From Alphaproteobacteria bacterium (GTDB lineage: Bacteria; Pseudomonadota; Alphaproteobacteria; SHVZ01): DNA of 64,000 bases. Every line of letters starts with the position of its first letter. Position 1 is the first letter of the stretch. The position numbers and the translations under genes were made by a program. The notes below the pieces were generated by a model that searched no databases, was not told where the DNA came from, and saw only the letters and a list, made by a program, of their open reading frames with translations. Below are positions 3,161 through 36,303 of this stretch, in pieces. The stretch spans positions 74,864 through 138,863 of the forward strand of contig JBGALV010000001.1 of NCBI GenBank assembly GCA_044223515.1, given 5' to 3'.

Positions 3161-4042
3161 ATGGCTGAGCGATCGAAGAACCTGGATGACGTGATCCGGT
3201 CGAACCGGAACGGCATCCTCGAAGACTGGCTGCGCCAGCAGACGGCTCAGACCAAGGTCTCGGACGTTGTCAGTGCGGCGGATCTTCGCGACGAATCCAG
3301 CCGCTTCCTCGAGGCCTTCACCGCTGGTCTCGCCGCCAATCAGAGCGAACTCGCCGGCGGTGCGTGGAGCGAGGCGCGCGCCCTGATCGGCTATCTGTCG
3401 CGCTCTCGCGCCAAGGTCGGGCTCACGCCGTCGGAAACCGCGACCTTCGTCTTCTCGCTTAAGCAGGCTCTGTTCGACCGCCTGGTCGCCGTATCCAAGG
3501 ACCCGGGCAGGCTCGCCGCCGATCTCTGGGTCGTCAGCCTGCTCCTCGACAAGCTCGGCCTCTACTCGGTCGAAGTGTTCATGGAGAGCCGGGAGGAGAT
3601 GATCCGGCGCCAGCAGCAGGATCTGCTGGAGCTTTCTACGCCGGTGGTCAAGCTCTGGGACCGCGTGCTGGCGCTGCCGGTCATCGGCACGCTCGACAGC
3701 GCCCGTACCCAGTCGGTGATGGAGGCGCTGCTGCAGGCGATCGTCGACGAGGGCGCGGAGATCGCGATCATCGACATCACCGGCGTGCCGACGGTCGACA
3801 CGCTGGTCGCTCAGCATCTTCTGAAGACCGTATCGGCCGCCCGCCTGATGGGCGCGGATTGCATCATCAGCGGCATCCGCCCGCAGATCGCCCAGACCAT
3901 CGTGCATCTCGGCGTTTCGCTCGACGTGGCGACCAAGGCGACGATGCGCGATGCCTTCGCGCTGGCGCTTCGCCGGATCGGCATGTCGGTGACGACGAGA
4001 AAGGCGCAACCGAGGAACGAAGCCGCTGACGCCAATGGATAG
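3161..4042 (+). CDS. rsbR: RsbR-like stressosome sensor (N-terminal RsbR non-heme-globin-type domain plus C-terminal STAS)
   Basis: The ATG at 3161 is preceded by AGGAGG. The C-terminal segment IIDITGVPTVDTLVAQHLL matches the RsbR STAS region, including the conserved phosphorylatable Thr residues. The N-terminal helical domain resembles RsbRD_N. Confidence 0.8.
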   Translation: MAERSKNLDDVIRSNRNGILEDWLRQQTAQTKVSDVVSAADLRDESSRFLEAFTAGLAANQSELAGGAWSEARALIGYLSRSRAKVGLTPSETATFVFSLKQALFDRLVAVSKDPGRLAADLWVVSLLLDKLGLYSVEVFMESREEMIRRQQQDLLELSTPVVKLWDRVLALPVIGTLDSARTQSVMEALLQAIVDEGAEIAIIDITGVPTVDTLVAQHLLKTVSAARLMGADCIISGIRPQIAQTIVHLGVSLDVATKATMRDAFALALRRIGMSVTTRKAQPRNEAADANG

Positions 4043-4430
4043 GATCCCTATCCTCAAGTTCGGCCGTTCGCTGCTGGTCACCATCCAGGTCGACATGCAC
4101 GACCAGCTGGCGATGACGCTGCAGGACGATCTGACCTCGCGCCTGGTGAAGGAAAGGGCGCGCGGCGTCCTGATCGACATCTCGGCGCTCGAGATCGTCG
4201 ACTCGTTCATGGGGCGCGTGCTGAACAACATCGCCGCCATGGCGAAGATCCTGGACGCGGTCACCGTCGTCGTCGGCATGCGTCCGGCGGTCGCGATCAC
4301 GCTGGTCGAGCTTGGGCTCGACCTCCCGGGCGTCAAGACCGCGCTCAACGTCGAGCGCGGCATGGACCTGATCCGGGCCAGCATCGAGGAAGAATACTCG
4401 GCCGCCGATGTCGACATCGACTCCGACTGA
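4035..4430 (+). CDS. rsbS: RsbS-like STAS-domain stressosome scaffold / anti-sigma-factor antagonist
   Basis: A 131-aa single STAS domain with the conserved ...LEIVDSFMGRVL... Ser motif. It overlaps rsbR by 8 bp. Confidence 0.8.
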   Translation: MDRIPILKFGRSLLVTIQVDMHDQLAMTLQDDLTSRLVKERARGVLIDISALEIVDSFMGRVLNNIAAMAKILDAVTVVVGMRPAVAITLVELGLDLPGVKTALNVERGMDLIRASIEEEYSAADVDIDSD

Positions 4431-4815
4431 GCGCGTCGAGATCCGGACGCCCGAGGACATCGTCCGCGTCCGGCAGCTCGTGCGCACCCGGGCACAGGCC
4501 GCGGGCCTGACGATCGTCGACCAGACCAAGGTCATCACGGCGGCCAGCGAGATCGCGCGCAATACGCTCGACTACGGTGGCGGTGGCGACGTCGAGATCG
4601 AGATGGTGGCCGAGCCGAAGAAGAATGGTGTCCGGCTGACGTTCCGCGATCAGGGGCCGGGAATCCCGGATATCGAGCAGGCGTTGCGCGACAACTTCAC
4701 CACCGGCGGTGGCCTGGGACTGGGGCTCGGCGGCGCCAAGCGGCTGGTCAACGAGTTCAGGATCGAGAGCAAGGTAGGGGCCGGCACGACGATCATGCTG
4801 GCGCGATGGAAATAG
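4408..4815 (+). CDS. rsbT: RsbT-like GHKL serine kinase (anti-sigma regulatory factor)
   Basis: A 135-aa protein with the N-box (ASEIARNTLDYGGGG), G1 (RDQGPGIPD) and G2 (GGGLGLGLGGAKRL) motifs of HATPase_c. It overlaps rsbS. Confidence 0.8.
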   Translation: MSTSTPTERVEIRTPEDIVRVRQLVRTRAQAAGLTIVDQTKVITAASEIARNTLDYGGGGDVEIEMVAEPKKNGVRLTFRDQGPGIPDIEQALRDNFTTGGGLGLGLGGAKRLVNEFRIESKVGAGTTIMLARWK

Positions 4816-5795
4816 TGATCCGCATCGAGCACGACTCCGATGTCGGCGTCGCCAGGCGCTCGGCCCGCGAGGCGGCGGAGTCCGCAGGCCTCGACGAAGA
4901 GGATGCCGGACGCGCCGCCCTGGTGGCGACCGAGGCCGCGACCAACCTGGCGCGGCATGCCAGCTCCGGTGCGTTCTTCGTTCGTCGTCTCGATCCGGCC
5001 GAAGGGCACGGCGTCGAGATGGTGGCGGTCGATCGTGGCCCCGGCATCGCGAACCTCGCGAACTCGATGGTCGACGGCGTCTCGACACGCGGTACGCCGG
5101 GCCAGGGCCTCGGGGCGATGAAGCGCATCGCCGATCTTCTGACCATCGACTCGCGCCCAGGCGAGGGAACCATCGTGGTCGCCCAGGTCCGCAACGGCAG
5201 CGCGGCCGCACCGTTGCCGATGGCGGTCGGCGGGATCGCCGCCGCCATTGCGCCCGACGGATGCGGAGACGCTTTTGCCTTCTCGCCGAGAGTGCGCGGC
5301 GTCGCGGTCATCATGATCGACGGCCTCGGCCATGGCGCCGATGCCGCGGTCGCGGCCGAAGCGGCGGTCGAATGCTTCCATCGGCGCAGCACGGACGACC
5401 TTGTGAATCTCTTTCAGGCGCTCGACCGCGAGCTCAGGCCGACGCGCGGTGCTGCGATCGCCATCGCCCATGTCGACCTGCAGGACAGGGCCGTGCACTT
5501 CATGGGCGTCGGCAACATCTCCGGGATCCTGATCTCGGGCGGCAAGGCGCGGAACATGGTGTCGCACAACGGCATCGTCGGCCACACGATGCGCCGCGTG
5601 CAGCAGTTCGACTATCCGTTCGCCGAAGACCCGACGGTGATCCTGCATTCCGACGGGGTAGGGACCCGCTGGCAGCCGATGGCTCTGATCGAGCGCGGGC
5701 TGACCAACCCCACCGCGATCGCGGCGCAGCTCTGGCGAAGCGACGCGCGCGGCCGCGACGATGCCGGCGTCGTCGTCGTCCGGGGGCGGACATGA
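4806..5795 (+). CDS. fusion protein: N-terminal RsbT/RsbW-like GHKL domain plus C-terminal PP2C (SpoIIE/RsbX-like) phosphatase
   Basis: The N-terminus has E..N..H, DRGPGI and GQGLG motifs, so it is GHKL-like. The C-terminus has IDGLGHGADAA, the PP2C metal-binding motif. It overlaps rsbT by 10 bp and the downstream kinase by ATGA. Confidence 0.75.
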   Translation: MEIVIRIEHDSDVGVARRSAREAAESAGLDEEDAGRAALVATEAATNLARHASSGAFFVRRLDPAEGHGVEMVAVDRGPGIANLANSMVDGVSTRGTPGQGLGAMKRIADLLTIDSRPGEGTIVVAQVRNGSAAAPLPMAVGGIAAAIAPDGCGDAFAFSPRVRGVAVIMIDGLGHGADAAVAAEAAVECFHRRSTDDLVNLFQALDRELRPTRGAAIAIAHVDLQDRAVHFMGVGNISGILISGGKARNMVSHNGIVGHTMRRVQQFDYPFAEDPTVILHSDGVGTRWQPMALIERGLTNPTAIAAQLWRSDARGRDDAGVVVVRGRT

Positions 5796-7874
5796 GCGAG
5801 CTGGTGCTGGCCACTCGCGTCGCCGAAGAGGGCGATGTCGTGCGCGCACGCCAGCAGGCGCGCCGGGTCGCGAGCCTGCTCGGCTTCGAGGGCCAGGATC
5901 AGGTGCGGATCGCGACCGCGGTCTCCGAGACGGCCCGCAGCGCGCTCGAATACGCCCATGGCGGCAGCATCGAGTTCGCGGTGGAGCGGCGAACCAAGCC
6001 GCAGCTTCTGATCGTTTCCGTGACCGATGCCGGGAAGAACGTGCATCCCGACAAGGCCGAGGAGCGGGATCATGGTTTCCTCGGCGCCCGGCGGTTGATG
6101 GACAAGGTCGATGTCGACATGACCGAGGCGGGGACGGTCGTTCGCCTGACCAAGCGCTTCCCCCGGACGGCACCGGCGGTCACCTCCAAGGTGATAGCCA
6201 AGATCTCTGCCGCCGTCGAAGGCGAGGCGAGCAACCCGCTGGAGGAGCTGGCCCGCCAGAACCGCGAGCTGATGCAGTCGCTCTCCGACAACAAGCGTCA
6301 GACCGACGCGGTCCAGCAGCTGAACCAGGAGCTGCAGGAGACCAATCGCGGCGTCGTCGCCCTCTACGCCGAGTTGGACGAGAAGGCGGCGAGCCTGAGG
6401 CGCGCGGACGAGCTCAAGTCGCGCTTCCTTTCCGATATGAGCCATGAGTTCCGGACGCCGCTGAACGCGATCCTGGCGCTTTCCAGCCTGTTGTTGGACG
6501 AGACCGACGGAAGTTTCGACCGAGCAGCGTCGCCAGGTGGTCTATGTCCGCCGGGCCGCCGAGTCGCTGAGCGGACTGGTCAACGACCTTCTCGACCTTG
6601 CCAAGGTCGAGTCGGGGAAGATCGAGATCCACCGCGCGCAGTTCGACGTGGCCGACCTGACCAGTGCGCTTCGCGGCATGTTCCGGCCGCTGGTGATCGG
6701 TGACGTCTCGCTGGTGATCGAGGACCCGGACGGGCTCGCGATCGTCTCGGACGAAGGCAAGCTCTCGCAGATCCTGAGGAACTTTCTCTCGAACGCAGTC
6801 AAGTTCACCGAGCAGGGCGAGATCCGCCTGTGCGTCACGGAGCCCAAGCCCGGCGTCGTCCGGTTCGACGTACGTGATACCGGCATCGGCATCGCGCCTC
6901 AGGATATCGAACGGATCTTCGATGATTTTGTCCAGGTCGACGGGCCGCGCCAGCGCCGTGTCCGCGGCACGGGCCTGGGGCTGCCGCTGTCGAAGAAGCT
7001 TGCCGGGCTCATCGGCGGGCACATCGAGGTGACGAGCGAGCCGGGCAAGGGCTCGACTTTTTCCATGATCCTGCCGGACGGCCTGACCGAGACCCCGGAC
7101 ATCGTGATGGAGCATGCAGCCGAGCTGACGAAGCAGTCGCCGGTTCTGGTGGTCGAGGACGAGCAGGCGGACCTGCTGGTCGCGGTGACCCTGCTGGACG
7201 CGGCGTCGATCCGAAGCCGGCAGGCGCGCACCTTGGCCGAGGCGCGGGCATCGATCGCCGCCGAGCGGCCCGCGGCGATCGTCCTCGACATCCGCTTCGA
7301 CAAGGGCGATGCCTGGACCTTCCTCGAGGAGATCAAGTCGTCGCCGGAGACTGCGGAGATCCCCGTCCTGGTGATGACTGCGACCGACGATGAGGAGCAT
7401 GCGGTCAAGCTGGGTGCTGAAGCATTTGTGAAAAAGCCCGTGGATCGACGCAACCTTGTGCGCTCGCTGCTTCGGCTCTTGAACAGGAAGCCTGCGCTCA
7501 ACGTCCTGCACGTTGACGACGACGAAACCGCCCGCTACGCGGTTCAGCAGATGCTGTTCGGCACCGGCCGGCATCTTCGCCAGGCTGAGAGCGTGGAGCA
7601 GGCGATGGCGTCGATCAGCCGCGATCAGCCGGACGTGGTCCTTCTCGATCTGCACTTTCCGGATAGCGACGGCTATGCGATGCTTTCCCGGCTGCAAAGC
7701 GACCCGGTACTGCGGATTCCAGTCATCATGCTGACGTCGGCCGTCCTCGATGATGCTGACAGACACCGCCTGGCCGGAGCCTTCGCCATTCTTTCCAAGC
7801 GCGATCTCGCCCGCGACACCTTGATCGACTCGATCGACGCCGCCTCGGCCTTCGGACACGGAGGCGCAGCATGA
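5792..7874 (+). CDS. hybrid sensor histidine kinase with an apparent +1 frameshift near 6509 (degenerate GHKL/RsbW-like N-domain, coiled coil, HisKA, HATPase_c, REC, REC)
   Basis: It starts MSELVLATR at 5792, in the frame of ORF 5261..6703. The H-box FLSDMSHEFRTPLNAI lies in frame A. The rest of HisKA plus HATPase_c and two receiver domains lie in ORF 6537..7874, in frame B. The shift occurs between 6506 and 6512. Confidence 0.7.
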
Positions 7875-27318: not shown

Positions 27319-27409
27319 CAACCTTAATTTAGGCTCGCCGGGGCGGAAAATCAGCCACGTTCTTGTCGTGGTCTTGCGCTGGCCGGGAGAGGCCCCCAAT
27401 GTCCGCCTC

Positions 27410-28288
27410 ATGAAGGAATTCGCGATCCGGCCGGATCCGGCTGATCCAAGGCTGACCCAGAAGGTTGCCGCGACCGACGAGGAAGGCCGCCCGGCCGAGC
27501 TCTCGGTGCCGACCGAGCGCCCGCTGACGCTCTATCTGAACAAGCGCGAGATCGTCACCATGATGACGATCGGCGACTATCCCGAATATCTCGCGCTGGG
27601 ATACCTGCTGAACCAGAACATGCTGAAGGCGGGCGATCCGATCGACGGCATCGACTACGACGACGAGATCGAGACCGTGGTCGTGCGCACGCCGGTCGCC
27701 ACCGACTTCGAGACCAAGCTCAGGAAGAAGACGCTGACGTCGGGCTGCGCCCAGGGCACCGCTTTCGGCGACGTGATGGAGACCTTCGATGCCTCGCGCC
27801 TGCCCAGGGACGCGATCCTGAAGACCTCCTGGCTCTATACGCTCAGCCGCAAGATCAACGCGACGCCGAGCCTCTACCTCGAGGCCGGCGCGATCCATGG
27901 CTGCGTGCTCTGCGAGCAGGACCGGCCGCTGGTCTACATGGAGGACGTCGGCCGCCACAACGCGATCGACAAGATCGCCGGCTGGATGGCGATGAACCGC
28001 GTCGCCGGCGGCGACAAGATCTTCTACACGACCGGGCGCCTCACCTCCGAGATGGTGATCAAGTGCGTGCAGATGGGGATCCCGATCCTGATCTCGCGCT
28101 CGGGCTGCACGGCCTGGGGCGTCGACCTGGCGAAGCGCGCCGGGCTCACGATGATCGGCCGTGCCAAGGGAAGGCGCTTCCTGACGCTCTCGGGCGCCGA
28201 AAGGATCGTCTACGACGCCGATGCGCGGGCGGTCGCCGAGGAGGCGAAGCACCTCCGTCGCAAAGGCGCGGAGGAGGACGCGGCTTAA
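27410..28288 (+). CDS. fdhD: formate dehydrogenase accessory sulfurtransferase FdhD
   Basis: It starts MKEFAIRP at 27410 and is divergent from moaA. It has the FdhD-family motif ...GRHNAIDK.... Confidence 0.85.
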
Positions 28289-28986
28289 GCCCGATAGGCG
28301 CCGTCGATCAGGCGTGGCGCCCGGTCGGAGCCGTCGAGCTCGGCGGCGATGTCGACATCGCGGATGTAGCCCTCCTGGGCGAGCTCCTGGCCGGACTGGC
28401 TGCCATGCAGCAGGCGCATCAGGTCGGCCTGCGCCGCGCGCCAGGACGTGCGCGCGAACTCGGCCTCGGGCGAGAGCGTCCCCTGGATTTCCTCGACGAT
28501 CGCGCCGACGCCGAGCCAGTCCTCGATCGCGGGCCGGAGGCTGCGGTCGGGCCAGCGCTCGCCGGCGGCGAGCACGCCGATGCGCGGGAAGGCCGAGAGC
28601 GCCTTCGCGACCGCGCGGCGGTTGCGAGGGCAGCCGGCGAAGGTCGCGACCCTGGGCGCGCGCGCGGCGATGGCCGAGAGCGCCGAGCCGTTCGGCGAGG
28701 GCAGCACGATCGTGCCTCCCTCCGGCACGTTCATCAGGCTGAGCGGCGACAGGCTGAGGTCGGTGGGGCCCGCCTCGACGCGCCGTTTGGCGAGCCGGGC
28801 GCCGAGCTGGTTTGCGAGCTTCTCGCCGGTCTCTCCGGTCGGCACCGGGTAGAGGGTGATCTCGCGGTCGGCCGCGACCGTGACGCAGGTCGAGAACGAC
28901 AGCACGTCGACGATGGCGACGGCGTCGCACCAGGTGAGAAGACGGGCGAGACCGAGCTCGCCCCAGTCGACGTCGATGCTGGTCAT
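28285..28986 (-). CDS. 2-phosphosulfolactate phosphatase family protein (ComB-like)
   Basis: A 233-aa protein with ComB family-like conservation. It overlaps the fdhD 3' end by 4 bp in convergent orientation. Confidence 0.7.
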   Translation of the reverse strand: MTSIDVDWGELGLARLLTWCDAVAIVDVLSFSTCVTVAADREITLYPVPTGETGEKLANQLGARLAKRRVEAGPTDLSLSPLSLMNVPEGGTIVLPSPNGSALSAIAARAPRVATFAGCPRNRRAVAKALSAFPRIGVLAAGERWPDRSLRPAIEDWLGVGAIVEEIQGTLSPEAEFARTSWRAAQADLMRLLHGSQSGQELAQEGYIRDVDIAAELDGSDRAPRLIDGAYRA

Positions 28987-28991
28987 CCGGT

Positions 28992-29669
28992 TCAGTAGCC
29001 GAACGTGATGCCGTCTTCGGAGACCCGCAGCAGGAACCGCTGCATGTCGCGGTCGGCGCTGTTGTGCCGGCTCGGGATGTAGCCCGTCAACGCGCCGACA
29101 TCCGGCATAGCCCGCGGCGGATTGCCGGGCTTGCCGCTGCGGTCGAAGCGGGCGAGCTCGAGCGGGAAGTTGAATGGCGTCGAGCCGTCGGGCGGGTAGT
29201 TGAACGCGGCGACGACGAAGCGTCCGTCATGGCAGCCGGCGGAGGTCCAGAAGAAGCGATCGGCGCGAAGATGGCCGACGGGCTTCACCGCCTTGGGCAG
29301 GTCGCCTTCCCAGACGGAGACCAGACGTCTCAGGTCCTCGGGCGCGATCGGCACGGCGCTGGCCGCGCCGTGAAGGAATTCCCCCAGGCTGAAGGTCGTC
29401 ATGTAGCCGATGCCGAGCCGCTCGAAGACGCGTGTCTCAACGGTACCGCCGGCGATGTCGTAGCTGCGCACCTGCTCGGAATAGATCGCGTTGTAGACGA
29501 AGCGCCAGCGTTCCGGCGCGCCGGGGCCGCAGGCGGCGCGGATGTCGGTGCCGGCCATGATGTCGGGCCACTGCAGGGTCCGGCTGATCGGGTTGCCGGA
29601 GATTCCTTGCGCGGCGGCGGCGCCGGCGCAGGCGAGGAGGGCGGTGAGGCCGAGAAGGATGCGTTTCAT
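28992..29669 (-). CDS. secreted hypothetical protein (signal peptide, 225 aa)
   Basis: An N-terminal signal sequence (MKRILLGLTALLACAGAAAAQG). I recognise no domain. Confidence 0.55.
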   Translation of the reverse strand: MKRILLGLTALLACAGAAAAQGISGNPISRTLQWPDIMAGTDIRAACGPGAPERWRFVYNAIYSEQVRSYDIAGGTVETRVFERLGIGYMTTFSLGEFLHGAASAVPIAPEDLRRLVSVWEGDLPKAVKPVGHLRADRFFWTSAGCHDGRFVVAAFNYPPDGSTPFNFPLELARFDRSGKPGNPPRAMPDVGALTGYIPSRHNSADRDMQRFLLRVSEDGITFGY

Positions 29670-29732
29670 CTCGTGAATCCGACGCCCGAAATGTGGCGGC
29701 TTGTTGGTGGCCTTGCCTGAACGGAAACGGGC

Positions 29733-29760
29733 CGCCGGAGAACCGGCGGCCCGTTCCTTG
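29733..29760 (-). terminator. rho-independent-type hairpin after the OmpA-family gene
   Basis: A perfect 10-bp inverted repeat (gggccgccgg agaa ccggcggccc) lies about 20 bp downstream of the stop at 29781. It is followed, on the transcribed strand, by tttccgttc. Confidence 0.5.
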
Positions 29761-29780
29761 GCCGCTATGCCCGGGAAAGG

Positions 29781-30665
29781 TTAGCGGAAGGCGATCTCGA
29801 CCCGGCGGTTCCGCGGCTCGCGGGCGCCGTCCGGCGTGGCGACGAGGTTGTCGTTCTCGCCGCGACCCGACATCTGGATCGTTGAGGCCGCGACGCCTTC
29901 GCGGACAAGCGCGGCCCGGACGGAGGCGGCGCGACGCTCGGACAGACGCTGGTTGTAGTCGGTCGCGCCGGAGCGGTCGGCATGGCCGGTCACCACCACG
30001 CGGACGTTGCCGCGCTTCGCATCGCCGGCGGCCTGCCGGATGATGTTCGCGGCTTCCGGCGTGATGTCCGACCGGTCGAAGTCGAAGAAGACGAGATAGG
30101 TCTTCGGCACCGACGGGGCCGGGGCGGGGGCCGGCGCGGGAGCGGGAGGCGGGGCTGCCGCCGCGATCACCCAGGAGGCAGGGTTGAGGCCGCAGGCCGC
30201 GACGTCCTCGACGTGATCCTCCGACATCTCTTCCAGCCAGCATTCGAAGGCGACCTGCTGGGTGGCGGCAGCGGCGGGATCGCGCGCCTTGGTCGCGTCG
30301 ATCCAGGCCGCGAGGCGCGTGCGGTAGTCGAGCGCGGTCGCGAGCGTCTGCTTGTTGTCGAAGCCGACGACCCAGCGTCCCCACATCGGCGGATGGCCGC
30401 GGCGGGCGTCCCATTCCTTCGGGTCGCCGACGGGCACCGCCTGGCCGCGTGCGGCCATGCCCGCCTTCTCGTACATCATGTTCGCGCCGATCGGGTCGTA
30501 CTCGGCCGACTCGATGTCGCCGCGGGCCTTGTAGCCGTCGGCGAGCGCCAGGAGGAAGCGGTCGGTGGTGGTGCGGGGACCGGCGGCGAGGTTCGGATCG
30601 GCGATGGTGCAGGCCGAGACCAGCGCCGCGGCGATGGCTGGGAGGATCAGGGCGCGGAAGTTCAT
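29781..30665 (-). CDS. OmpA-family lipoprotein (N-terminal domain of unknown function, Pro/Ala linker, OmpA_C peptidoglycan-binding domain)
   Basis: A lipobox-like signal (LVSAC), an (AP)n linker and C-terminal OmpA_C motifs (TGHADRSG..YNQRLSERRA..V). Confidence 0.8.
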   Translation of the reverse strand: MNFRALILPAIAAALVSACTIADPNLAAGPRTTTDRFLLALADGYKARGDIESAEYDPIGANMMYEKAGMAARGQAVPVGDPKEWDARRGHPPMWGRWVVGFDNKQTLATALDYRTRLAAWIDATKARDPAAAATQQVAFECWLEEMSEDHVEDVAACGLNPASWVIAAAAPPPAPAPAPAPAPSVPKTYLVFFDFDRSDITPEAANIIRQAAGDAKRGNVRVVVTGHADRSGATDYNQRLSERRAASVRAALVREGVAASTIQMSGRGENDNLVATPDGAREPRNRRVEIAFR

Positions 30666-30771
30666 GGGTTTCCTTTCTGGAACGGAAGGGGCGAAGCCCC
30701 ATCATCGTTACTCAGATACCGCGCACCTGTCTTCGGGAAATGAAGGGTTTCGAGTAGAACGCGTCTGAAAG

Positions 30772-31689
30772 TCATTCGCGCCCCTGATGTTCCCAAAAAC
30801 CTGAAGCCCCAAAAGAAACGGGCCGCCGGAGAACCGGCCCGTCCGGCGTGGCGACGAGGTTGTCGTTCTCGCCGCGACCCGAGGTCTGGATCGTGCTGGC
30901 CGCGATGCCTTCGCGGACCAGGGCGGCCCGGACGGAGGCGGCGCGGCGCTCGGACAGACGCTGGTTGTAGTCGGTCGGGCCGGAGCGGTCGGCATGGCCG
31001 GTCGCCACGATCAGACGGACGTTGCCGCGCTTCGCGTCGTCGGCAGCCTGCCGGATGATGGCAGCGGCCTCAGGCGTGATGTCCGACCGGTCGAAGTCGA
31101 AGAACACCAGGTAGGTGCGCGGAGCCGGTGCCGGCGCGGCAACCGGGGGCGGCGTGACCACCGTGGTCTGCTGGGTGACCCAGAGCGACGGGTTGAGGCC
31201 GCAGAGCTCGACCTCCTCGTAGTCGTCCTCGGCCATCTGCTCGAGCCAGCACTCGAAGGCGACCTGCTGGCCGGCGGTGGTGATCGGATCCCGCGCGCGA
31301 TTGGCGGCGATCCACGCGCTCAGGCGAGCGCGATAGTCGAGGGCGGTGTCGAGGGTGCGCTTCGACTGGAAGCCGACGACCCAGTGGCCGAACATCGGCG
31401 GATGGCCGCGGCGGCGGTCCCATTCCATCGGATCGCCGACCGGGACCGGCTGGCCGGTGCCGGCCATGACCGACTTCTCATAGAAGATGCCGGCCGGGAC
31501 GTAGTCCCAGTGCCAGGTGCTGTCCTCGAACTGGCCCAGCTTGCGATAGCCGTCGGCGAGCGCCTGCTGGAACGGGTCCGAGTTGGGACGGAGGTTGTGG
31601 GAGTCGGTGCGGGCGGGCTCGGCGATCCACGTGCATCCCGCGGTCAGCAGGACGGCCGCGAGAGCCGGGATAAGGCGATGGAGTTTCAT
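30772..31689 (-). CDS. OmpA-family lipoprotein paralog with replaced C-terminus (possible pseudogene)
   Basis: It starts MKLHRLIPALAAVLLTAGC at 31689. The OmpA_C region is about 90% identical at DNA level to the neighbouring copy. The last roughly 13 codons, the stop and the hairpin are deleted, so the ORF reads on through the remnant hairpin into former intergenic sequence (...PVLRRPVSFGASGFWEHQGRE). Confidence 0.65.
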   Translation of the reverse strand: MKLHRLIPALAAVLLTAGCTWIAEPARTDSHNLRPNSDPFQQALADGYRKLGQFEDSTWHWDYVPAGIFYEKSVMAGTGQPVPVGDPMEWDRRRGHPPMFGHWVVGFQSKRTLDTALDYRARLSAWIAANRARDPITTAGQQVAFECWLEQMAEDDYEEVELCGLNPSLWVTQQTTVVTPPPVAAPAPAPRTYLVFFDFDRSDITPEAAAIIRQAADDAKRGNVRLIVATGHADRSGPTDYNQRLSERRAASVRAALVREGIAASTIQTSGRGENDNLVATPDGPVLRRPVSFGASGFWEHQGRE

Positions 31690-31951
31690 GCAACTGTCCC
31701 CATACGTAAGGTTAAGGCGGCAACACGGCCGTCGTGATGCGGGCCGAGCGGACCCGCGCGCATCGCTGTCAGTGCCCGTAAATACCCAGGTACCGCCGGA
31801 TGGTTCCCCGCTCCGGACGCATTTTTTGAGAAAGAGGGACGTGCACATGATTTGGCGGGCGGTATCGAGGCGGCTGTGACCCGGATGCAACGGCCTTGAC
31901 CGCCGGGAGCGCTGTCGCCATGGTCGCCGCCTCCCGACGGAACGACCTGCC

Positions 31952-33118
31952 TTGAGCGCCCGCAAGACCATCCTCGTCCACCACTTCGTCGGCCAGATGC
32001 CGCTCGCCGGCATCGCCTGGCAGGCGACCCAGTACCTGTCGGCGCTGCGCCGGCTCGGCCACGACGTCTGGTACATCGAGGACAACGGGGTGAACCCGTA
32101 CTCGCCGAAGGAGAACCAGCTCGTCTGGGACTCGACCTACAACATCGGCTACGTGCGCTCGATGATGGAGCGCCTCGGGCTCGGCGACCGCTGGGCCTAC
32201 TGGGACCCGGTCAAGGACGGAGCCTGGGAGGGGATCGGCCGCGACCGCCTGATGCAGCTCTACGGCGAAGCCGACGCCCTGATCAATCTGTGCGGCTCGA
32301 CCAAGCTCCGCGAAGAGCACATGAAGTGCCCGGTCCGGATCCTGATCGACACCGATCCCGGCTACGAGCAGATCAAGATCGCGCAGGACGACGCGTACTC
32401 GACCGAGTTCGTCGACGCGCACACGCATCTCTTCACCTACGGCCAGAACATCGGCGACGCCGATTGCCTGATCCCCGCCGGCACGCGGCCGTGGAAGCCG
32501 ACGCGCCCGCCGGTCGACCTCGAGCTCTGGCCCTACGACGACCGCCCGGCGCCGTCCGCCTATACCTCGGTCGCGACCTGGCAGAACAAGGGCAAGAACG
32601 TCCGCTGGCAGGGTCAGTCCTACCAGTGGTCGAAGCACACCAACTTCCTCAAGTTCCTCGACCTGCCGAAGCGGAGCGGGCGGGAATTCGAGCTGGCGCT
32701 GATCACGCCCGATCCGTCGGTCAACAAGCAGGTCGAGGAAGCCGGCTGGCGCGTGCTCGACGGTGCCGTGCAGTCCGAGACGATGGACTCCTACGGCGAC
32801 TTCGTCCGCCGCTCGCGCGGCGAGTTCACGGTGGCGAAGGACATCTACGTCCGCACCAACTCCGGCTGGTTCTCCGACCGCAGCGTCTGCTACCTCGCCT
32901 CGGGCCGGCCGGTGATCATGCAGTCGGCCGGGTTCGAGAAGACGATCCCGGTCGGCAAGGGCCTCTTCTCCTACACCGACCACGATCAGGCGATCGCCGC
33001 GCTCGATGCGATCGACAAGGACTACGAAGGCAACCGCAAGGCCGCCCGCAAGATCGCCGAGGACCACTTCGAAGGCACGTCCGTGGTCAAGGACATCCTC
33101 GACAAGGTCGGCCTCTAA
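31952..33118 (+). CDS. hypothetical protein (388 aa; possibly glycosyltransferase-like C-terminus)
   Basis: An intact ORF with good codon bias. I cannot recognise a confident domain from the sequence alone. Confidence 0.55.
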   Translation: MSARKTILVHHFVGQMPLAGIAWQATQYLSALRRLGHDVWYIEDNGVNPYSPKENQLVWDSTYNIGYVRSMMERLGLGDRWAYWDPVKDGAWEGIGRDRLMQLYGEADALINLCGSTKLREEHMKCPVRILIDTDPGYEQIKIAQDDAYSTEFVDAHTHLFTYGQNIGDADCLIPAGTRPWKPTRPPVDLELWPYDDRPAPSAYTSVATWQNKGKNVRWQGQSYQWSKHTNFLKFLDLPKRSGREFELALITPDPSVNKQVEEAGWRVLDGAVQSETMDSYGDFVRRSRGEFTVAKDIYVRTNSGWFSDRSVCYLASGRPVIMQSAGFEKTIPVGKGLFSYTDHDQAIAALDAIDKDYEGNRKAARKIAEDHFEGTSVVKDILDKVGL

Positions 33119-33263: not shown

Positions 33264-34730
33264 ATGCGTGTCTTCGCTGCGGCGCTGGCGACCGAAACCA
33301 ACACCTTCGCGCCGATCCCGACCGACCTCGCCATGTTCAGGGAGGGCATGTACGCGAAGCCCGGCGAGCATCCGCCGGAGCCGACGCTGTGCACGGCCCC
33401 CCTCGCCATCGCCAAGCGCCGCGCGCGCCAGGACGGGTTCACGTTGATCGAAGGGACCTGCGCCTGGGCCGATCCCGCCGGGCACGTGAATCGCGGCGTC
33501 TACGAAGGGCTCCGCGACGAGATCCTGGACCAGCTCAAGGCGGCGATGCCGGTCGACATCGTGCTGCTCGGCCTGCACGGCGCGATGGTGGCGCATGGCT
33601 ATGACGACTGCGAGGGCGACCTGATCCAGCGCGCCCGCGCCATCGTCGGCCCGAAGGCGATCATCGGCGCCGAGCTCGACATGCACTGCCACATCACGCG
33701 CGAGATGACGACGGGCGCCAACGTGCTCATCGCCTTCAAGGAGTTTCCGCATATCGACTTCGCCGAGCGCGCCGAGGAGCTGCTGTCGATCTGCCTGCGC
33801 GCCGCCAAGGGCGAGGTGAAGCCGGTGATGTCGGTCTATGACTGCCGCTCGATCTCGGGGTTCATGACCAGCCGCGAGCCCGGCCGCAGCTTCGTCGACC
33901 GGATCAAGGCGATGGAAGGCCGCGACGGCATCCTCTCGATCACCATCGCGCATGGATTCAACGCCGGCGACGTCGCCGAGATGGGCACCAAGGTCATCGT
34001 CGTGACCGACGGCAGGCCGGAGTCCGGCCGCGCGCTCGCCAAGCAGCTCGGCGACGAGATCATCGGCTTCCGCGTCTCCGGCGCCACGCCGCACATGAAG
34101 ACCGACGAGGCGCTCGACCACGCCATCGCGGCCGCGAAGGGCCCGGTGGTGCTCGCCGACCGCTGGGACAATCCGGGCGGCGGCGTCGCCGGCGACGGCA
34201 CCTTCCTTCTGCGCGGCCTGATCGAGCGCAAGTTCACCGACGCCTGCCTCGGCGCCCTCTGGGACCCGATCGCGGTCCGCTTCTGCATGGCGGCCGGTCC
34301 GGGGGCGAAGCTGCAGCTCCGCTTCGGAGGCAAGTGCACGCCCGATGGCGGCGAGCCGATCGACGCCGAGGTCGAGGTGCTGAAGTGCGTGGCCGAGGCG
34401 ACCCAGACCTTCCGGGGATCGGTGGTGCCTATGGGCGACGCGGTCGCGATCCGCGTCCACGGCATCGAGGTGGTGCTGAAGACCAGCCGCTCGCAGACCT
34501 TCGATCCGTCGCTGTTCACCGTCGTCGGCATCGATCCGACGAAGAAGAAAGTCGTGATCGTGAAGTCGAGCAACCACTTCTACGACGCCTTCGCCAAGTT
34601 CGCGGCCGAGATCATCTACGTCGACTGCGGCGGCCCCTATCCGGGCGACCCGCGCAAATCGACCTTCACCAAGCTCCGCCGCCCGATCTGGCCGCTGGAC
34701 GAGGACGCGAAGGCGGAGATGTTTCAGTAG
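33264..34730 (+). CDS. M81-family metallopeptidase (MlrC-like; DUF1485/DUF1355)
   Basis: A 488-aa protein with the characteristic MlrC N-terminus (MRVFAAALATETNTFAP) and C-terminal domain. Confidence 0.8.
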   Translation: MRVFAAALATETNTFAPIPTDLAMFREGMYAKPGEHPPEPTLCTAPLAIAKRRARQDGFTLIEGTCAWADPAGHVNRGVYEGLRDEILDQLKAAMPVDIVLLGLHGAMVAHGYDDCEGDLIQRARAIVGPKAIIGAELDMHCHITREMTTGANVLIAFKEFPHIDFAERAEELLSICLRAAKGEVKPVMSVYDCRSISGFMTSREPGRSFVDRIKAMEGRDGILSITIAHGFNAGDVAEMGTKVIVVTDGRPESGRALAKQLGDEIIGFRVSGATPHMKTDEALDHAIAAAKGPVVLADRWDNPGGGVAGDGTFLLRGLIERKFTDACLGALWDPIAVRFCMAAGPGAKLQLRFGGKCTPDGGEPIDAEVEVLKCVAEATQTFRGSVVPMGDAVAIRVHGIEVVLKTSRSQTFDPSLFTVVGIDPTKKKVVIVKSSNHFYDAFAKFAAEIIYVDCGGPYPGDPRKSTFTKLRRPIWPLDEDAKAEMFQ

Positions 34731-34797
34731 AGCCGAACCTCTGAACGGCGGCGTGATGGACCCTGAATTCTCGACGATGTAGTATTTAAACGGTCAA

Positions 34798-34874
34798 CGG
34801 GCGCCGTCCTTGTGGAAGGGACGGCGCCCGCTCTAGGCAGCTCCGGTGGAAGGGAGCACCAAGGGCGGCGTCTC
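34798..34874. terminator. two stem-loops between convergent genes (likely terminators for each strand)
   Basis: The first is gggcgccgtcc..ggacggcgccc, a perfect 11-bp stem. The second is gggcggcgtctc..gaggcgccgccc, with 1 mismatch, followed by aatttgttt on the plus strand. Confidence 0.45.
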
Positions 34875-34899
34875 GTAGGGGAGGCGCCGCCCAATTTGT

Positions 34900-35616
34900 T
34901 TAAGTCGCTTGCTCTGACTTAGCCTTCGCCTTCTTGGTCAAGTACTGGATCAAGGTCCAGATCGCGTTGCGTTCGTTGTCGCCGATCTCGTTGTCCTTCA
35001 TCAGATCGACGAGCTTGTACTCCATCGCCTTGTCCGAGATCGGCTCGTTTCGAGCCGGCGGGATCGACTGCTCGACGGTCGACGAGTCGTCGTTGGTCTT
35101 CCTCACCTTCCGCTTGCCGCTGCCGCTATTGGGAACGCGCGGCACAGAACCCGTCAGGATACGGTTCCCCATGGGGACACCGGCGCGCTTCGCCGCGTGC
35201 AGGAAGAAGGTGCGACACTTCCGCGAAACATCTTCCTTCGCGCCGGTCACCTTGAAGGCGTCGGCCAACATCTGCGGCGTGGCCGTCAGGAGGTCGAGCT
35301 GGAACACGTAGGGGTAGGTGGCTTTCAGCCGCTCCAACAGCAGCGGCTCGAACGCGGGTGTCTCGAAGGCATTGACCAACTTCTTCAAGACTTCGGTGGG
35401 CTTGTCGCCATCCATGAGGCCTAACGACCTCAGGGCCATCTTCATCTGGCCCTGGATGCCGCCGGAAAGTTTGCTCAGCACCGATCGGTCGATCTGGGGA
35501 GGTACCCCGTCGGTCTTCAGCGCCTTGAAGAACGTGAGCAAGGTAGCGAAGGAAATGTACGGCGGGGTGCGGGCCGAAACTTCACTGCCTTCCCGTTCCA
35601 TCGTGTCGTCTGCCAT
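34900..35616 (-). CDS. hypothetical protein, ORFan-like, in a lower-GC islet (238 aa)
   Basis: It starts MADDTMEREG at 35616, with AGGAAGG 6 nt upstream. The local GC is clearly lower than the flanks. An AT-rich region of about 180 bp lies upstream. Confidence 0.6.
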   Translation of the reverse strand: MADDTMEREGSEVSARTPPYISFATLLTFFKALKTDGVPPQIDRSVLSKLSGGIQGQMKMALRSLGLMDGDKPTEVLKKLVNAFETPAFEPLLLERLKATYPYVFQLDLLTATPQMLADAFKVTGAKEDVSRKCRTFFLHAAKRAGVPMGNRILTGSVPRVPNSGSGKRKVRKTNDDSSTVEQSIPPARNEPISDKAMEYKLVDLMKDNEIGDNERNAIWTLIQYLTKKAKAKSEQAT

Positions 35617-35898
35617 GAGCCACCTTCCTGCAGCTTGAGCCGTAAGATTAGGGCGTGTGCCATCGTCTGTCCAGCGGAAATAGAATGGCACATGACGTGG
35701 ACAAATGGCACATATCAACAGGCGCCGAATGCGAGTGCGCGCATGTTTTTAATTATATGATTTTATTGATTGTTATCAGGTTTTTGGAATCTGATATGCG
35801 CTGGCGGTCGAGTTGGAATATTTAACAAAAGGCTAATGTTGAAAGAAAATTTAGGATGGAACGCGCTAGGATTCGGATGGACAAGTGTCCCTTGAGGG

Positions 35899-36303
35899 CT
35901 ATGGCATCCGCTTGAACCGCTCATCCACCTCGACCTGGTACGCCGTCACCAGCGCGTTGGTCTCGTTGGCCATGCCGACGACGCCGATCAGCTCGCCGAG
36001 CATCGGCTCGGTCAGTCCCTTGGCGCGGGCGGCGGCGGTGTGGGAGGCGATGCAGTACTCGCAGCCGTTGGTGATGCTGACCGCGAGGTAGATCATCTCC
36101 TTGGTCAGCGGGTCGAGCGCGCCGCCGGGGCCCATCACCTGCTTCAAGCTCTCCCAGGTGCGCTTCAAGGTCGGCGGGTGATGCGCCAGCACCTTCCAGA
36201 AGTCGTTGATCCAGTCGGTCTTGCGGGTGGCCATGATGTCGTCGAAGACGGCCTTGACCTCGGGGCTCGCGTCTTCCGGCTGGATCGGGCGGGCAATCGG
36301 CAT
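35899..36303 (-). CDS. carboxymuconolactone decarboxylase (AhpD-like) family protein
   Basis: A 134-aa protein with the CxxxH-type AhpD-like motif region (NGCEYCIASH). Confidence 0.8.
   Translation of the reverse strand: MPIARPIQPEDASPEVKAVFDDIMATRKTDWINDFWKVLAHHPPTLKRTWESLKQVMGPGGALDPLTKEMIYLAVSITNGCEYCIASHTAAARAKGLTEPMLGELIGVVGMANETNALVTAYQVEVDERFKRMP

Follow-up and report, generated by a model that had tools for sequence, protein, structure and literature searches.

Lipoproteins of the OmpA family (Pfam PF00691), among them Pal, YiaD, YfiB and PA1041, combine an N-terminal lipobox cysteine with a C-terminal OmpA_C domain of βαβαββ topology, in which an aspartate (of the TDYN motif) and the arginine of an NRR motif are conserved. 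In Acinetobacter baumannii OmpA, Asp271 and Arg286 bind the diaminopimelate of peptidoglycan (PMC12108004). Concerted evolution by gene conversion has been described in prokaryotes (PMC6053082), and gene conversion is also known among the outer-membrane protein paralogs (bab/hop) of Helicobacter pylori (PMC3960876). Here, we analyse two tandem OmpA-type lipoprotein genes that share the two-part layout of Pal, YiaD, YfiB and PA1041, with the conserved aspartate and arginine both present in the intact downstream copy. Both are encoded on the minus strand in the region 29730–31690 of a 64,000-nucleotide stretch of DNA from an Alphaproteobacteria bacterium (contig JBGALV010000001.1; hereafter the window, in whose numbering positions are given unless a relative is named). 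We conclude, with a probability of roughly 0.78, that the upstream gene of this pair is a young pseudogene or loss-of-function allele produced by a recent deletion of 79 nucleotides (nt), within an old pair whose 3′ part has undergone gene conversion.

Pairwise alignment of the two loci opened a single 79-nt gap in the upstream locus, corresponding to downstream-locus positions 29748–29826 (Table 1). The upstream gene has thereby lost its last 14 codons (AREPRNRRVEIAFR in the paralog and VREPRNRRVEIAFR in the orthologs), its stop codon, about 34 nt of the 3′ untranslated region (3′UTR) and 3 nt from the 5′ arm of the hairpin that follows. Codon 284 is joined directly to the interior of this terminator arm, with the junction (marked by a slash) running ...agaaccggc/ccgtccggcgtgg... 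on the plus strand and read as ...CCGGACGG/GCCGGTTCTCC. Beyond it, an out-of-frame tail of 21 amino acids (aa), PVLRRPVSFGASGFWEHQGRE, passes through the hairpin remnant and the U-rich tail to a new stop, TGA at 30772–30774. The initial annotation, which was made from the sequence alone, had proposed a deletion of about 80 bp that removed the last OmpA_C β-strand together with the stop and appended 21 unrelated residues read through the hairpin remnant; the alignment bears this out, with exactly 14 codons plus the stop missing. No homolog of the tail was found: coverage of the query by close homologs never exceeds 93%, and in none does it extend to the tail. From the alignment, the loss could have arisen as one 79-nt event at a junction without microhomology, or as a 76-nt slippage between GGACGG direct repeats together with a 3-nt slip in GCCGCC. 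A 19-nt insertion that is present in no relative lies some 40 nt away from the junction; it occurs once in the window, with no template elsewhere in it, and may be part of the same complex repair event. This insertion fixes the position of the new stop.

To place the altered end in its family, we used 11 distinct loci (L001, L002, L003, L005, L006, L008, L010, L011, L012, L014 and L015), which derive from metagenome-assembled genomes or metagenomes of uncultured Alphaproteobacteria, the only organisms in which this subfamily turned up. In 11/11 loci the upstream gene keeps the canonical ...DG[VA]REPRNRRVEI..R end and is followed by its own copy of the hairpin. The closest homolog of the upstream protein, the orthologue P0001, is 96% identical, has 298 aa and also ends canonically (VREPRNRRVEIAFR), while the downstream orthologue P0008 is 98% identical; an exact-protein look-up gave no match for either window protein. 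Searches of the metagenome collection returned no exact match to the junction sequence and none to a window-specific 35-mer, and no near-identical strain was found. Some 13 kb around the locus align collinearly to L001 and L002, with 94% identity and few gaps, and adjacent open reading frames (ORFs) are intact; dN/dS of the upstream gene against L001 is about 0.1. Because all 11 relatives keep both the canonical end and their own terminator, sequence comparison indicates that the deletion is a private and recent lesion in an otherwise well-conserved region. The initial annotation would have been refuted by related genomes sharing the altered C-terminus as a conserved feature; none of the 11 loci has it.

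The lesion falls in a defined part of the protein fold. The two genes carry the only OmpA_C copies in the window, and both exceed the PF00691 gathering score of 27.2. The downstream gene scores 73.9 bits across profile positions 1–98 of 98, and the upstream gene 67.9 bits across positions 1–88 of 98 only. In the downstream protein, a lipobox (LVSA/C19, the slash here marking the residue before the lipobox cysteine) is followed by a helical N-domain and, after a disordered PA-rich linker, by a complete OmpA_C domain whose end is REPRNRRVEIAFR. The upstream protein comprises a signal sequence (LLTAG/C19), a helical N-domain, a Pro/Ala linker and an OmpA_C domain that is cut after ...NLVATPDG and continues into the 21-aa tail. 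By pattern inspection, the lipobox is MKLHRLIPALAAVLLTAG/C in the upstream gene and MNFRALILPAIAAALVSA/C in the downstream gene, and Cys19 is invariant in family alignments of 15 and of 52 sequences. Together with the PF00691 matches, this upholds the original description of the genes as tandem OmpA-family lipoprotein paralogs. The conserved start of the upstream gene is the codon at 31689 that opens MKLHRL; an ORF call of 437 aa that fuses upstream non-coding sequence onto the gene was rejected.

The AlphaFold2 (AF2) model of the intact downstream paralog (mean pLDDT 86) has an all-helical N-domain at about residues 36–158, a disordered Pro/Ala linker at residues 169–184 and a βαβαββ OmpA_C domain, in which the final strands are formed by residues 282–284 and 288–293. 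Using Foldseek, the C-domain of this model matched the peptidoglycan-binding domains of OprF, A. baumannii OmpA, Pal and YfiB (E ~1e-8 to 1e-6), and the match to OprF (5u1h; E 1.9e-8, target TM-score 0.77) shows the complete fold. By sequence, the pair matches Pal and YiaD with E-values of 1e-11 to 1e-12. Unlike Pal and PA1041, the two genes lie below every NCBIfam equivalog cut-off, with scores for Pal (TIGR02802 / NF008067) of 69.1 and 54.7 bits against a cut-off of 125.35, and for PA1041 of 75 against 250. No tol genes flank the locus. From these comparisons, both products are best described as generic ‘OmpA family’ lipoproteins. Pilus_CpaD Pfam matches in distant homologs were dropped as a lead to the N-domain, as they overlap the OmpA_C region.

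The deleted segment of the upstream gene corresponds to both final strands of the downstream model, and its NRR motif aligns with the NRR of Pal and YiaD. Of the two residues equivalent to those that contact diaminopimelate, the upstream gene has the aspartate (TDYN) and has lost the arginine (of NRRVE), whereas both are present in the downstream gene. Across the 52-sequence family alignment, REPRNRRVE varies little or not at all. The complete βαβαββ fold with its C-terminal core strand is absent from the upstream gene, which is disrupted relative to its orthologs and lacks essential residues; the rest of its ORF contains no further stops or frameshifts. Because the last core β-strand and the diaminopimelate-binding arginine are gone, and the motif is near-invariant, loss of wall binding and probable misfolding of the OmpA_C domain are expected. 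The upstream protein would then carry an OmpA_C domain unable to fold correctly or to anchor to the wall.

The deletion also reaches into the hairpin. After the stop of the downstream gene, this hairpin has a perfect stem of 12–13 bp (−33.9 to −37.5 kcal/mol, z = −4.06 in the RNA fold), in agreement with its initial description, and across all relatives its stem is nearly invariant and its loop variable. In the upstream locus, the 5′ arm is shortened from ACGGGCCGCCGG to ACGGGCCGG, but the UUCU loop is kept, as are the entire 3′ arm (CCGGCGGCCCGU) and the tail (UUCUUUUGGGG); a U-rich tail, GUUUCUUUU, survives 3′ of the remnant. The remnant is still able to pair, forming with the flanking coding bases a stem of about nine pairs with a 9-nt loop, and its centroid energy is −16.8 kcal/mol (z = 0.11), compared with −33.9 kcal/mol (z = −4.1) for the intact hairpin. 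The initial claim had been that the second copy lost both its stop and its terminator. The stop is indeed lost; the folding model indicates that the terminator is weakened rather than removed. A consensus promoter and terminator scan of 29500–32000 called no site, the hairpin being passed over because of its weak U-tract (the tails UUUCCGUUC or UUUCUUUU fail the U-tract rule), and Rfam gave no match over 29000–32500.

In the arrangement created by the deletion, the weakened hairpin and U-tract would lie about 30 nt upstream of the new stop. Transcripts ending at the remnant would be non-stop mRNAs, predicted to recruit tmRNA and to be cleared by trans-translation, and transcripts reading through it would continue into the downstream paralog.

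The second part of our conclusion concerns the 3′ half that the paralogs share. Their N-domains are 58% identical in amino acids and 69.7% in nucleotides, and their OmpA_C regions are 90.6% identical in nucleotides, close to the values (about 60% and about 90%) from which the initial annotation had proposed gene conversion. A maximum chi-square analysis placed the breakpoint at nt ~586 of the upstream gene (window ~31104), with 68.1% identity before it and 91.3% after it, a statistic reached in 0/1000 permutations. Third codon positions follow the same step, being 57% identical before the breakpoint and 85% after. Between the paralogs, synonymous divergence (dS) falls from 0.62 in the N-domain to 0.23 in OmpA_C; between the window and L001 it is 0.18 and 0.12 for the upstream gene and 0.11 and 0.13 for the downstream gene. 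As the drop in dS is seen in paralogs and not in orthologs, the identity step is not explained by protein-level constraint alone.

The affinities of the two halves also differ. The N-domain of the window downstream gene is 80.5% identical to the single gene of L007, which has a downstream-type gene only (4001–4870), versus 69.7% to the window upstream gene, and its OmpA_C region is 90.6% identical to the window upstream gene versus 79.3% to L007. In neighbour-joining trees, the split between upstream and downstream genes has 100% bootstrap support in the N-domain and 35% in OmpA_C, where 60% of replicates place the upstream genes of L014 and L015 with the downstream genes of these two loci and of L007. 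For the window, L001 and L002, grouping in OmpA_C is still by ortholog.

The most telling evidence for conversion comes from the non-coding 3′UTR and the terminator loop, which covary between the paralogs and group by lineage rather than by paralog. The loop is TTCT in both genes of the window, ATCT in both genes of L011 and of L012, and AGCAAT in both genes of L005; in L015 it is ACTT in the upstream gene and ACCT in the downstream gene. Sequence beyond the stem is paralog-specific, which sets the 3′ boundary of the shared tract just past the stem. The identity step, the contrast in dS between paralogs and orthologs, and the lineage grouping of the 3′UTR and loop together argue for gene conversion, in line with the initial proposal, and the excess of 3′ over 5′ similarity on which that proposal depended extends to dS and to the non-coding 3′UTR. 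On this basis, the N-domains would have diverged freely and the 3′ part would have been repeatedly homogenised, from the start of OmpA_C through the stop and the 3′UTR to the end of the terminator stem.

The main conversion must be older than the split between the window and L001 and L002, given that OmpA_C identity is about 96% between orthologs and about 90% between paralogs. The five private substitutions in the window upstream OmpA_C are all synonymous, and 5/5 have the downstream-paralog state, a modest sign that micro-conversion is still going on. Three upstream-type synonymous sites at nt 798–810 of the downstream gene were considered as a fresh upstream-to-downstream conversion and rejected after polarisation with L011 and L012; the downstream genes of these two loci have the same states, which are thus ancestral, and it is L001 and L002 that carry the derived ones. 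A downstream-like cluster at nt 105–114 of the upstream gene was not counted as conversion, as it is interleaved with upstream-type sites and poorly alignable.

Compared with described cases of concerted evolution in prokaryotes, including the H. pylori bab/hop genes, the locus likewise has one segment that is far more alike than the rest, synonymous and non-coding sites included, in a lineage-specific manner. It differs from these cases in its converted tract, made up of the 3′ domain and the terminator of two adjacent genes, in showing no evidence of antigenic or phase variation, and in the age of its main conversion, which is old.

The tandem arrangement itself is old, with the upstream and downstream genes both kept in L001, L002, L010, L011, L012, L014 and L015. 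L005 and L006 have an additional short OmpA lipoprotein of 140 aa between the paralogs (L005 5035–5457 and L006 2662–3084), and L008 has the upstream gene and the short gene (5036–5458) only, having lost the downstream gene. These differences in gene content among relatives indicate that the locus is recombinationally active.

Table 1. Positions of the paralogs, the deletion and the features associated with them.
Feature	Position	Strand	Description	Basis
Upstream paralog	30772..31689	-	305 codons (305 aa); copy 2 of the initial annotation	ORF list, Pfam
Downstream paralog	29781..30665	-	Intact, 294 aa; copy 1 of the initial annotation	ORF list, Pfam
Deletion junction	30838..30839	-		Pairwise and multiple alignments; boundaries of BLAST high-scoring segment pairs against L001, L002 and L011
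Private 19-nt insertion	30781..30799	-	TTTTTGGGAACATCAGGGG; just 3′ of the terminator remnant, within the new ORF tail	Alignment
Terminator remnant	30802..30842	-	Inside the extended upstream ORF	Sequence and RNA fold
Intact hairpin 3′ of the downstream paralog	29727..29754	-	ACGGGCCGCCGG-UUCU-CCGGCGGCCCGU, then UUCCGUUC; presumed intrinsic terminator	
Homogenised tract, upstream gene	30839..31104	-	OmpA_C coding region, 91% identical to paralog	Chi-square, dS
Homogenised tract, downstream gene	29727..30092	-	OmpA_C coding region, 3′UTR and terminator	Alignments

The initial annotation had left two outcomes side by side for the upstream gene, a decaying pseudogene or a variant with altered peptidoglycan anchoring. 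The former is better supported by our comparisons and the latter less so, since the deleted segment holds both the last core β-strand and the diaminopimelate-binding arginine. As in young pseudogenes that arise when a single deletion or frameshift strikes one of two redundant paralogs, there is one lesion, the allele is private, the ORF and promoter are otherwise undamaged, and the neighbouring paralog is intact and would probably buffer the function of the upstream gene. What sets the gene apart from them is that its stop is gone as well and that a weakened terminator now stands within the reading frame, from which non-stop transcripts or read-through are predicted. Several observations weigh against this interpretation. 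Relaxed selection has as yet left no significant sign: the private changes of the upstream gene (seven nonsynonymous to nine synonymous, versus 15:42 in pooled controls) differ non-significantly and are a hint at most, so that the allele could be very young or still useful. The scanner did not call the hairpin, which leaves its role as a terminator, and hence the non-stop mRNA step, presumptive. The OmpA_C tree is poorly resolved, with the 60% lineage grouping standing against the 35% paralog grouping, and strong purifying selection on OmpA_C across the family accounts for part of the identity difference. Lastly, the genome is represented by one sequence only, in which the very GC-rich hairpin may have been sequenced or assembled wrongly.

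Such an error, behind which the real upstream gene would be intact as in its relatives, seems to us unlikely. It would fit a deletion that is unique with respect to the 11 related loci and absent from metagenome contigs, and that has one endpoint in a 12-bp hairpin stem made up of G and C only, where coverage is easily lost and polymerases tend to slip; the nearby 19-nt insertion is then a second private indel, as in a locally poor consensus. However, collapse of paralogs in an assembly graph leads to chimeras or loss of a whole copy and not to a clean internal loss of 79 nt, the flanks of the junction are upstream-specific on both sides, and the very few gaps across the 13 kb shared with L001 and L002, with intact neighbouring genes, show that the assembly is not generally indel-ridden. 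Taking the deletion as real, the 305-aa product might be a functional variant that keeps the function of the N-domain while being free of the cell wall, and that may raise read-through into the downstream paralog. No damage is seen in its signal peptide, N-domain, linker or upstream region, which are 94–96% identical to those of the orthologs, there are no secondary lesions, and ribosomes translating the ORF would open what is left of the hairpin, which is much weaker; but the tail is without a homolog, the allele has been seen once, an α/β domain without its last core β-strand normally misfolds, and the near-invariance of REPRNRRVE in the family implies strong selection, all of which makes a functional variant decidedly unlikely. 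We give very little credence to a maintained allele that has rewired the pair, in which ribosomes would melt the weakened terminator and create de novo translation-coupled read-through into the downstream paralog, together with a wall-detached lipoprotein having N-domain activity only. With regard to the shared 3′ half, stronger purifying selection on the OmpA_C domains of anciently diverged paralogs might, in principle, account for the similarity without conversion. In every family member the protein sequence of OmpA_C is highly conserved; even to the C-domain of β-barrel OmpA proteins from related bacteria its identity is ~80%, and its dN is low everywhere. Yet the paralog dS is 2.7-fold lower in OmpA_C than in the N-domain, with no such difference between orthologs, third positions show the same contrast, the non-coding 3′UTR and loop are common to the paralogs and change together by lineage, and the complete bootstrap support for the paralogs in the N-domain collapses in OmpA_C. 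Selection acting alone is thereby largely refuted, and we regard it as barely credible.

The β-barrel OmpA proteins of related bacteria (P0026–P0047; ~355 aa, PF13505 plus PF00691) share 71–84% amino acid identity with the OmpA_C domain of the lipoproteins and have unrelated N-terminal parts. The C-domain may be exchanged or homogenised across architectures, beyond the tandem pair.

Two conserved intergenic blocks precede the downstream gene on the minus strand, at 30707–30725 and ~30755–30780 (L001 ~6990–7060), with the sequences CGCGAATGACTTTCAGAC(A/G)CGTT and GACAGGTGCGCGGTATCTGAGTAACGATG, and are kept in all related loci. A similar motif, GCGGTA(T/C)C(T/C)(G/A)GGTA, is found before the upstream gene (~31785–31800) and before some neighbouring genes in relatives. 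These elements are probably a promoter or operator; in the scan they gave no sigma-70 consensus match, and Rfam had no match to them. The first intergenic block contains the new stop of the truncated gene.

Directly downstream of the OmpA pair, 28992–29669 (minus strand) encodes a protein of 225 aa that has a signal peptide and belongs to no Pfam family, and divergently upstream of the pair, 31952–33118 (plus strand) encodes a 388-aa protein with no Pfam match in the window and only a weak Glyco_trans_1_2 match in L007. Both genes border the OmpA pair in all of the related loci and may therefore have a functional link with it. At window 34730–35909 (L001 2390–3067), synteny with L001 and L002 is broken by a local gene replacement, the relatives having a 211-aa GST gene and the window ~1.2 kb of non-matching sequence. 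Many long overlapping ORFs in other frames and on the opposite strand, including 29437–30705, 30772–32085 and 27329–28930 (all on the minus strand) and others, for example one encoding a 422-aa Arg/Pro-rich product, were rejected as genes and attributed to very high G+C content.

Beyond annotation, the importance of these findings is small. The biology is ordinary, and concerted evolution and early pseudogenes are each well-known phenomena. The 305-aa ORF should be annotated as a disrupted OmpA-family gene and not as a new C-terminal variant. The one part of the locus with open biology is the helical N-domain fused to OmpA_C, an arrangement confined to a group of uncultured freshwater Alphaproteobacteria. 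For its paralogs as a pair, the locus offers a clean, small example of 3′-domain and terminator homogenisation between tandem bacterial genes.

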